From NCBI RefSeq assembly GCF_006345805.1, contig NC_043002.1, positions 87,854,001-87,918,000 on the forward strand: 64,000 bases of DNA, given 5' to 3'. Shown in pieces: positions 15,333 through 16,542 of the stretch. The number at the start of each line of letters is the position of its first letter. Within the stretch, counting starts at the first letter, position 1. The notes under the pieces were generated by a model. It had not been told where the DNA came from, made no database searches, and worked only from the letters and a program-made list of their open reading frames with translations. A program made the position numbers and the translations under genes. The stretch is from Octopus sinensis (Eukaryota).

Positions 15333-15765
15333 AATTTATCAATATAGGGTAGCAAAAAAAATTCAAGAAAAATTTTCTGCAACCAGCGGTCAAGTGAGAA
15401 AATAGAAATAGTCACAGACTATATAATATATTCAACAAATATGGCACGGTTACGTTGGATTTCGAAAAATTAGGATATATACACTCGGGGCTTCAATGGT
15501 ATCGCCTCGTGTGTATATGTTCGCCTTTTCTTTTGGAGACTTTGCTGATGAAACAAGCCAATCGTAAACGGATTTAATTTAATTTAATTAAGTTCGATTG
15601 CATAAAAATTGTTGAAACCTTGCAGGGTACAAAGTTGAAAAGGACAAATGTTTTTATTTCTCCTTTAGCTTTCAGAATTACTACTATTTTTGCGGTTTTG
15701 AGTTTGGCTGCTCTTTTCAAGTGAGTTGAACGACCTGTAAGGGTCTTTCCTTAATATTTTGTATA
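15333..15765 (+). mobile_element. HHR element family 2, copy 1
   Basis: ~430 bp; alignable to the 490-bp unit; near-identical to 16110-16542. Confidence 0.85.
15538..15636 (+). ncRNA. Type I hammerhead ribozyme
   Basis: GACTTTG-CTGATGA-AACAA...TTGTT-GAAA-CCT-tgca-GGG-TA-CAAAGTT; predicted cut after 15629. Confidence 0.88.
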
Positions 15766-16109
15766 CATATATATATATATACATTTATATATATATATAT
15801 ATATATATATATATATTATATATATATATATATATATATATATATATATATATACATATATATATATACATATTATATATATACATATACATATATATAT
15901 ATAATATATATACATATACATATACATATATATACATATACATATATATATATATACATATACATATATATATATATATATATATATATATACTATATAT
16001 AATATATATATATATATATATATATATATATATATATATATATATATATAATATATATATATATATATATATATATAATATATATATATATATATATATA
16101 CATATATAT

Positions 16110-16542
16110 AATTTATCAATATAGGGTAGCAAAAAAAATTCAAGAAAAATTTTCTGCAACCAGCGGTCAAGTGAGAAAATAGAAATAGTCACAGACTATA
16201 TAATATATTCAACAAATATGGCACGGTTACGTTGGATTTCGAAAAATTAGGATATATACACTCGGGGCTTCAATGGTATCGCCTCGTGTGTATATGTTCG
16301 CCTTTTCTTTTGGAGACTTTGCTGATGAAACAAGCCAATCGTAAACGGATTTAATTTAATTTAATTAAGTTCGATTGCGTAAAAATTGTTGAAACCTTGC
16401 AGGGTACAAAGTTGAAAAGGACAAATGTTTTTATTTCTCCTTTAGCTTTCAGAATTACTACTATTTTTGCGGTTTTGAGTTTGGCTGCTCTTTTCAAGTG
16501 AGTTGAATGACCTGTAAGGGTCTTTCCTTAATATTTTGTATA
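16110..16542 (+). mobile_element. HHR element family 2, copy 2
   Basis: Duplicate of 15333-15765. Confidence 0.85.
16315..16413 (+). ncRNA. Type I hammerhead ribozyme
   Basis: Same fold as 15538-15636; predicted cut after 16406. Confidence 0.88.

Follow-up and report, generated by a model that had tools for sequence, protein, structure and literature searches.

The stretch of Octopus sinensis DNA analysed here (64,000 nucleotides, hereafter the window) contains two 433-bp copies of a hammerhead-bearing repeat, at 15333-15765 and 16110-16542, which differ at 2 of their 433 sites and are both flanked by long TA runs. In each, the core CUGAUGA (starting at 15545 in copy 1 and 16322 in copy 2) is followed in turn by stem II (5 bp, with a long extension), GAAA, stem III and the GUA site, and the predicted cuts fall between 15629 and 15630 in the first copy and between 16406 and 16407 in the second. 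Judged by its sequence features (CUGANGA, GAAA and an NUH site in type I order, together with three covarying stems) the motif is a type I hammerhead. The 433 bp do not amount to a natural unit, which is ~480 nt long and occurs in tandem at other loci; rather, each copy consists of an inverted segment of ~107 nt, normally found 3' of the ribozyme's 3' domain, joined to a 5'-truncated forward arm. Since the same inversion junction is present in both, the two copies go back to a single insertion event, and the pair is either a local duplication across the TA microsatellite or two alleles assembled side by side. A whole insertion locally duplicated across a TA run, resembling the window pair, was also seen at L010/L013 (G000:C5:67176865-67178626).

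The window additionally holds a tandem array of ~490-bp units (Table 1). An earlier sequence-only reading had described the two copies as homologous to the array unit, and this was confirmed: as natural units the two types are 65% identical over their full length (329 of 503 columns). Both copies do carry the reported flank motifs, along with CUGANGA, GAAA, the GUA site and the long stem II extension, and stems I and II hold as they were drawn. The array's stem III had been given a 2-nt loop, in which form it cannot fold; the real form is 3 bp closed by a TATA tetraloop, stem plus loop making up a 10-nt palindrome. The description of the window copies as a “sister” family is loose: on a tree that leaves out the columns of the tested stems, the window and array families rank with the most widely separated tips.

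Table 1 Features of the two window copies and of the array (positions in the window; strand given last).
Feature	Position	Strand
Array family, inverted arm, ~2 units; short terminus (+131)	5465..6510	-
108-nt junction piece of the array's inverted arm	~6513-6620	+
Array family, forward arm, 4.7 units of ~490 bp; long terminus (+234)	6513..8803	+
(TA)n microsatellite target, left flank; more runs at 15762-16110 and 16539-16809	14858..15332	.
“Tail” arm in inverted orientation, from unit positions ~126-237 downstream of the cut site; its long terminus abuts (TA)n	15333..15442	-
5'-truncated spacer; long imperfect hairpin ~15466-15529; inversion junction ~15442/15443	15443..15523	+
Hammerhead stem I, 5' side: distal helix 15524-15530, bulge 15531-15537, proximal stem 15538-15544	15524..15544	+
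Predicted pseudoknot strand within the stem I bulge	15533-15536	+
Core CUGAUGA	15545..15551	+
Stem II (15552-15556 with 15609-15613), internal loop, long AU-rich extension hairpin	15552..15613	+
Predicted pseudoknot strand within the internal loop after stem II	15558-15561	+
GAAA, near-palindromic stem III/loop III (15618-15627), GUA; predicted cut after 15629	15614..15629	+
Stem I, 3' side: proximal 15630-15636, distal 15637-15643	15630..15643	+
Structured 3' domain, ending at the short terminus (~130 nt from the cut site) next to (TA)n	15644..15761	+
Second copy, inversion junction as in copy 1, core at 16322, predicted cut after 16406	16110..16542	+

Several other repeats were noted in the window. 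Adjoining the array, at 8802-9368, are two ~260-bp long-hairpin (MITE-like) copies between TA runs, and related sequence follows the element at another locus (L003). A hammerhead motif of a different family, with a 4-bp G-C stem II and an AUA site, lies at 18200-18270 (+ strand), with a partial second copy near 17760; it sits in a direct duplication of ~470 bp that stops at a TA run, and the region flanking L007 contains similar sequence. SINE-like repeats of tRNA origin and tandem repeats of 184 bp occupy 56736-56805 (- strand), 16830-16910, 3556-4455 and 31701-32188.

A conserved hammerhead with a palindromic stem III

Relatives of both types are dispersed over many chromosomes, DNA searches having yielded 1,525 and 975 candidates (40 and 36 of them scored). 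In the 2.72-Gb genome a core-plus-apex motif pattern gave 5,275 matches against 9 for its reversed control, two patterns tied to the 3' flank gave 378 and 15 matches, their controls giving none, and a stem III pattern, which yielded older subfamilies, gave 634 against 4. Natural units measure 466-492 nt with a GC content of 0.32-0.38, and up to ~17 full units are found per locus. The unit is non-coding: among the frames listed there is no long ORF within units and none for a reverse transcriptase (RT) plus GIY-YIG, nor was there a frame of 450 aa or more in the 12 loci fetched with the stem III pattern. Contigs from two runs labelled as other species (X7, X19) also match the unit, and joints that “go back” in assembled contigs of four runs are compatible with tandem DNA as well as with circles. 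A search of the window with Rfam returned no hammerhead match, with either the gathering score or E ≤ 10 as cut-off, probably because the long stem II extension defeats the models.

That selection acts on RNA structure had originally been argued by comparing the window copies with the array, all stems being described as replaced. Over 13 core-anchored pairs (five in stem I, five in stem II and three in stem III), seven are indeed changed on both sides and none is broken, but six are identical; moreover, both window copies represent one event, so that the comparison sets one lineage against one and is not what supports the claim. The claim itself nevertheless stands when carried over to the subfamilies, from which 42 natural copies were picked by hand to cover the range, drawing on 136 distinct ribozyme contexts and a few further loci and passing over most of those in which indel errors were evident. 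The core was used to anchor the stems, as a plain MAFFT alignment misregisters the pseudoknot and distal stem II (see below), and on this basis the paired cells number 206 of 210 in stem I, 152 of 168 in stem II and 124 of 126 in stem III, while the 10.1-11.1 pair is mismatched in 8 of the 42 copies. On a tree that omits the columns of the tested pairs, parsimony counts ~18 independent changes affecting both sides of a pair: stem I accounts for 6.5 of them, stem II for 5, stem III for 4.5, and the centre of loop III and the pseudoknot for one each. A simplified tree-based null, in which the substitutions of each branch are reassigned, gives 1.8 ± 1.3 double changes with a maximum of 8 in 5,000. 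In a MAFFT alignment of 36 of the 42 copies, 96.5% of cells are paired, compared with 74.5% after shuffling and 24-41% when the strands are slid; 9 of the 11 pairs there have a two-sided change, a value that 85 of 500 shuffles also reached.

The core had been the search anchor for many loci, and its conservation was therefore tested on 12 loci picked without the CUGANGA anchor, where it proved to be intact in nine, to carry one substitution in two and to be truncated in one. The 126-nt ribozyme region folds with z values of -3.2 and -3.7. The feature is thus real and its structure conserved, although covariation in itself is expected for the class of element concerned, and within-genome covariation of such motifs is already known for Penelope-type hammerheads (PMC4209133). 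Most likely the selection is on the element's own propagation and not on the host. In the 3' domain around the two ends of the element there are conserved hairpins, with only 4 two-sided changes in 35 pairs and an RNAalifold covariation term near zero; circular folds of eight natural units gave z values of -3.1 to -7.3 in all eight cases, each relative to 25 shuffles.

In every subfamily, stem III together with its loop forms a 10-nt palindrome or near-palindrome. The central 4-mer of loop III is self-complementary in 176 of 180 contexts, and remained so through the one change seen, while its four bases cannot pair within a monomer. For the monomer, folding predicts a hammerhead as the minimum free energy (MFE) structure in only 2 of the 42 copies; the window copy instead has stem III paired with the 5' strand of stem I, leaving its active fold 3.7 kcal/mol above the MFE. 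As a monomer, 15520-15650 is predicted to misfold, and the construct that had been put forward for a cleavage assay (15530-15645) lacks the 5' strand of distal stem I. For the dimer of the window copy the MFE structure is a complete double hammerhead, at -8.1 kcal/mol relative to two monomers. Across the 42 copies an intermolecular stem III appears in the dimer MFE structure of 37, and the full double hammerhead in 19 but not in 23, these being predictions of a model in which any palindrome favours the dimer. On such modelling, the hammerhead is probably dimer-dependent. Dimeric action is established for repeat and Penelope hammerheads (PMC4209133; PMC7229834), and the dimeric hammerheads of newt and axolotl satellite 2 and of Penelope pLTRs described in those papers share the palindromic loop III and predicted double hammerhead, differing in that their stem III is of 1-2 bp, as compared with 3 bp plus a tetraloop (the 10-nt palindrome) here.

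The stem I bulge is complementary over 3-5 bp to the proximal internal loop after stem II, which makes this a candidate pseudoknot. Its three central pairs hold in 41, 41 and 38 of the 42 copies (in the window copy one of the pseudoknot pairs is an A-G mismatch); one pair passes from G-C to A-U, with a G-U form in L225, and another from C-G through U-G to U-A, but there is just one two-sided change, on a branch that it shares with the change in loop III. The mean duplex energy is -5.5, against -4.7 when partners are swapped (0 of 300 controls), in a statistic that ignores kinship, and the complementarity is broken or absent in four older loci (L214, L221, L222 and L223). Contact between stem I and the tip of the stem II extension, as the sequence-only reading had envisaged, is not favoured: it is the proximal internal loop that is complementary to the stem I bulge. 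Between the core halves the intervening segment ranges from roughly 42 to 85 nt, and with length and apex both so variable the tip was rejected as an unlikely point of contact. Pseudoknots between stems I and II are common among hammerheads (Perreault et al. 2011, PMC3088659), and the candidate here would be a base-paired contact of that general kind, though unlike the cases described there it spans only 3-5 bp, joins a stem I bulge to an internal loop of an extended stem II, and occurs in a repeat family.

Insertion ends and the uniformity of arrays

Copies of the element end against (TA)n at two fixed sites, one ~+130 (short) and the other ~+235 (long) from the cut site, with 55 short and 54 long junctions to TA runs when counted by distinct sequence. 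The ends abut (TA)n, which would mask any target-site duplication. Copies that are not inverted end at either of the two sites, and poly(A) is absent. In the window family, 15 loci among the 30 fetched (24 of which are independent) are clearly inverted, and 14 of these 15, assessed by eye, have one end of each kind. In the array family, 18 of 21 loci are inverted, a figure that is not an estimate of the inversion rate given that the set comprises the window and 20 chosen multi-unit loci, many picked because both strands had been seen; all 16 with both ends in view carry one short and one long end. The two inverted arms are consequently asymmetric, a tail of ~105 nt being present on one arm only.

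In these 21 array-family loci, each of 7-19 pieces, a substitution tends either to be shared by the whole locus or to be restricted to one unit. Eight substitutions, in six loci, are private to one of the 21 and present in all or nearly all units of both arms, and five further private substitutions occur in non-inverted loci, “private” being judged against 21 of several hundred loci. The set contains 17 distinct fixed haplotypes, together with 16 partial variants that each touch 2-3 scattered units. Units of one locus differ by independent indels (indel errors being numerous in units) yet share their substitutions. As the locus-fixed haplotypes extend over both arms, all the units would descend from one unit sequence at most insertions, and the uniformity of the arrays suggests rolling-circle reverse transcription of a single monomer, in line with the circle-templated rolling-circle copying proposed by Cervera and de la Pena (PMC7229834). 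In the older window-copy family the arms often differ or have diverged, so that there the test is not a clean one.

Two observations on the variants themselves may be added. At loci L226-L245, some locus-fixed variants (unit positions 52, 380 and 430) are found on more than one haplotype background, a hint of recombination, of template switching or of the same change arising repeatedly. RNA editing was considered as a source of locus-fixed variants, but the excess of A-to-G changes (7, against 4 T-to-C) is too small for a claim.

Penelope-like elements and a proposed route of insertion

The element belongs to the non-LTR retrozymes, a known kind, so that what is added here is mechanistic. Like the metazoan non-LTR retrozymes described previously (Cervera and de la Pena 2020, PMC7229834; Li et al. 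2026, 10.64898/2026.07.22.740005), it consists of tandem non-coding repeats with one type I hammerhead per unit, a GC content below 45%, thousands of copies, a circle predicted to be self-paired and Penelope elements in the same genome. It differs in unit length (~480 nt, against ~170-400 nt in the first of these sources and 51-972 bp in the second) and, from those compared, in its long stem II extension with a candidate pseudoknot. Both papers propose circle copying and Penelope mobilisation, while the two-site ends, tail-bearing inversions and locus-fixed haplotypes are, relative to the parts of those papers compared, reported here only. A search of the literature (repeat databases being outside its reach) found no description of this ~480-nt family or of tail-bearing inversions in retrozymes. 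How animal retrozymes move is still a matter of proposal, with circles as RT templates and Penelope elements as drivers (PMC7229834), and the mobilisation mechanism is named as future work in the more recent source (10.64898/2026.07.22.740005).

Penelope elements with a C-terminal endonuclease are abundant in this genome, a protein search having given 9,382 candidates. Their frames of 842-1011 aa carry the RWK and DKT motifs given for the Hydra clade by Craig et al. (2021, PMC8557442). The local elements also carry type I hammerheads with an extended stem II, GUA and a palindromic stem III, and the inverted autonomous loci have one long and one short end in five of five cases (+134..158 and +35..44 respectively), the short end abutting non-TA DNA in two of the five. 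Hydra-type elements at L140-L151 were seen to have frames of 814-1011 aa, long Asn-rich linkers and 3' regions of 1.4-1.7 kb, with tails of ~96-121 nt containing three hairpins, far longer than the published 30-40 nt. A second group (L209-L213), with RT plus a C-terminal GIY-YIG, frames of up to 1120 aa and inverted copies, has a non-canonical hammerhead-like motif near the 3' end. Pfam searches of the Penelope frames returned nothing above cut-off.

The retrozyme resembles Hydra-clade Penelope elements (PMC8557442) and PAc (PMC11167929) in its tandem or inverted insertions, one-ended tail and AT-rich targets, and in both the type I hammerhead lies upstream of the ends. It differs in having no ORF, in its tail of ~105 nt (close in length to the local autonomous tails, as opposed to those published) and in the distance from the hammerhead to the short end, ~130 nt as against ~35-45 nt in Penelope. 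In Xenopus, retrozymes have a homologous Penelope pLTR (10.64898/2026.07.22.740005), whereas here no pLTR homologous to the unit was found by blastn against natural units among the tested Penelope loci (L110-L151 and L198-L213, the best matches of 9,382 and 2,527 candidates for the two groups); around these loci only neighbouring retrozyme insertions matched. A 72% match beside the frame of L212 was rejected as a pLTR, being an old retrozyme fragment in a microsatellite, and by eye the long ends of the retrozyme and of Penelope looked weakly alike in their AT-rich sequence. With no pLTR homology found, we infer the Penelope partner from architecture only.

In Penelope insertions a tail is present at one end only (Craig et al., PMC8557442), and it represents the stretch between two internal RT start sites, both DNA strands being nicked and extended in vitro (Frangieh et al., PMC11167929). 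If reverse transcription is initiated internally, an RNA lacking a 3' end could presumably serve as template. The reading we prefer, to which we would assign a probability of about 0.7, is that a non-LTR retrozyme with a covarying hammerhead is cut by paired hammerheads, forms a circle, and is likely copied into (TA)n by a Penelope-like enzyme. A tandem array would first be transcribed; neighbouring hammerheads, according to the folding predictions, would then use their palindromic stem III to pair up as a double hammerhead, aided by the short candidate pseudoknot between stem I bulge and stem II internal loop, with cleavage following GUA or GUC, a lone unit adopting mostly an inactive fold. 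The monomer would be ligated into a circle, as proposed for retrozymes (PMC7229834), and a Penelope RT/GIY-YIG protein would nick both strands of a TA run and begin reverse transcription internally, at the ~+130 and ~+235 sites where the observed ends lie, one site per strand. The outcome would be two inverted arms with the ~105-nt tail on just one, and each arm may circle one monomer up to many times, giving the uniformity seen. The window copy would then be a short product of this process, duplicated locally afterwards.

A more specific version, to which we give slightly less than even odds, is that the dimer-gated hammerhead frees the monomer, which stays uncut as a circle, and that an RT of the Hydra-clade Penelope type, starting from both nicked DNA strands, primes at two structure-defined internal sites of this circle and rolls out inverted concatemers. 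Against the preferred reading stands the finding that in Xenopus only one of nine retrozyme dimers cleaved (10.64898/2026.07.22.740005).

The most serious competitor keeps the Penelope enzyme but takes a linear multimeric transcript as template, with the hammerhead trimming it or being a passenger and with uniformity arising from young source arrays or gene conversion. The Penelope hammerhead is dispensable for insertion in vitro, where it needed protein in order to cut (PMC11167929), the monomer here folds mostly into an inactive form, and variants called private were compared over 21 of several hundred loci, all of which would suit a linear template. Even so we regard it as unlikely: 17 haplotypes in 21 loci without any block-wise mosaic imply frequent single-unit bottlenecks, and the stems and core have been kept through ~35% divergence. 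Far less probable is a DNA-level satellite in which the stems are compensated by template-switch correction of quasi-palindromes and have no RNA function. Tandem arrays, a palindromic stem III and stem II extension, and window copies that form a local duplication are what this would lead one to expect, but it accommodates poorly a dispersal over many chromosomes with two fixed ends at (TA)n, or the ~6.5 compensations in stem I, the strands of which are ~85 nt apart around a fixed, unpaired core.

Mobilisation by a LINE is less probable again. Taken by itself the window copy does resemble the product of twin priming, and there are LINE-like RT fragments in the flanks; L1 twin priming, however, gives a variable internal site and a poly(A) end, whereas in this family neither site varies, poly(A) is lacking, a non-inverted copy may stop at the one site or the other, and the local Penelope elements share the end pattern. 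Least probable of all is that the inversions and uniform arrays are artefacts of long-read assembly, since, for all the indel errors in units and the chance that the window copies are two alleles, artefacts would hardly produce asymmetric arms with two different fixed ends, or units of one locus with independent indels but common substitutions.

The value of the insertion ends and the array uniformity is that they make the preferred mechanism of circle plus Penelope directly testable. The family yields predictions at base level (two start sites, a TA target, priming on both strands and concatemers from one monomer) that could be examined in the existing in vitro Penelope assay (PMC11167929) using the long-frame elements of the same genome, and its graded subfamilies amount to a ready-made set of natural mutants of a hammerhead that is extended, probably dimer-dependent and perhaps pseudoknotted, and that escapes Rfam. 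If the more specific version is correct, the genome contains a record of the retrozyme life cycle which would explain both how a circular RNA without ends retrotransposes and how Penelope tails and inversions arise.

Finally, the same genome holds other repeats with hammerhead-like motifs. An unrelated tandem repeat of ~475 bp, which includes an inversion and whose type I hammerhead motif is more compact and has an AUA site, was encountered at G000:C1:1375706-1379047 (L092), L096 and L108:3162, and is a second retrozyme superfamily. A loose hammerhead core pattern gave 36,352 matches against 20,767 in its control, and more repeat families with hammerhead-like motifs and an extended stem II were seen at G000:C1:2173411 and 4297863 (L093), C1:1028243 and 3509395 (L094, L095), L062 and L102.
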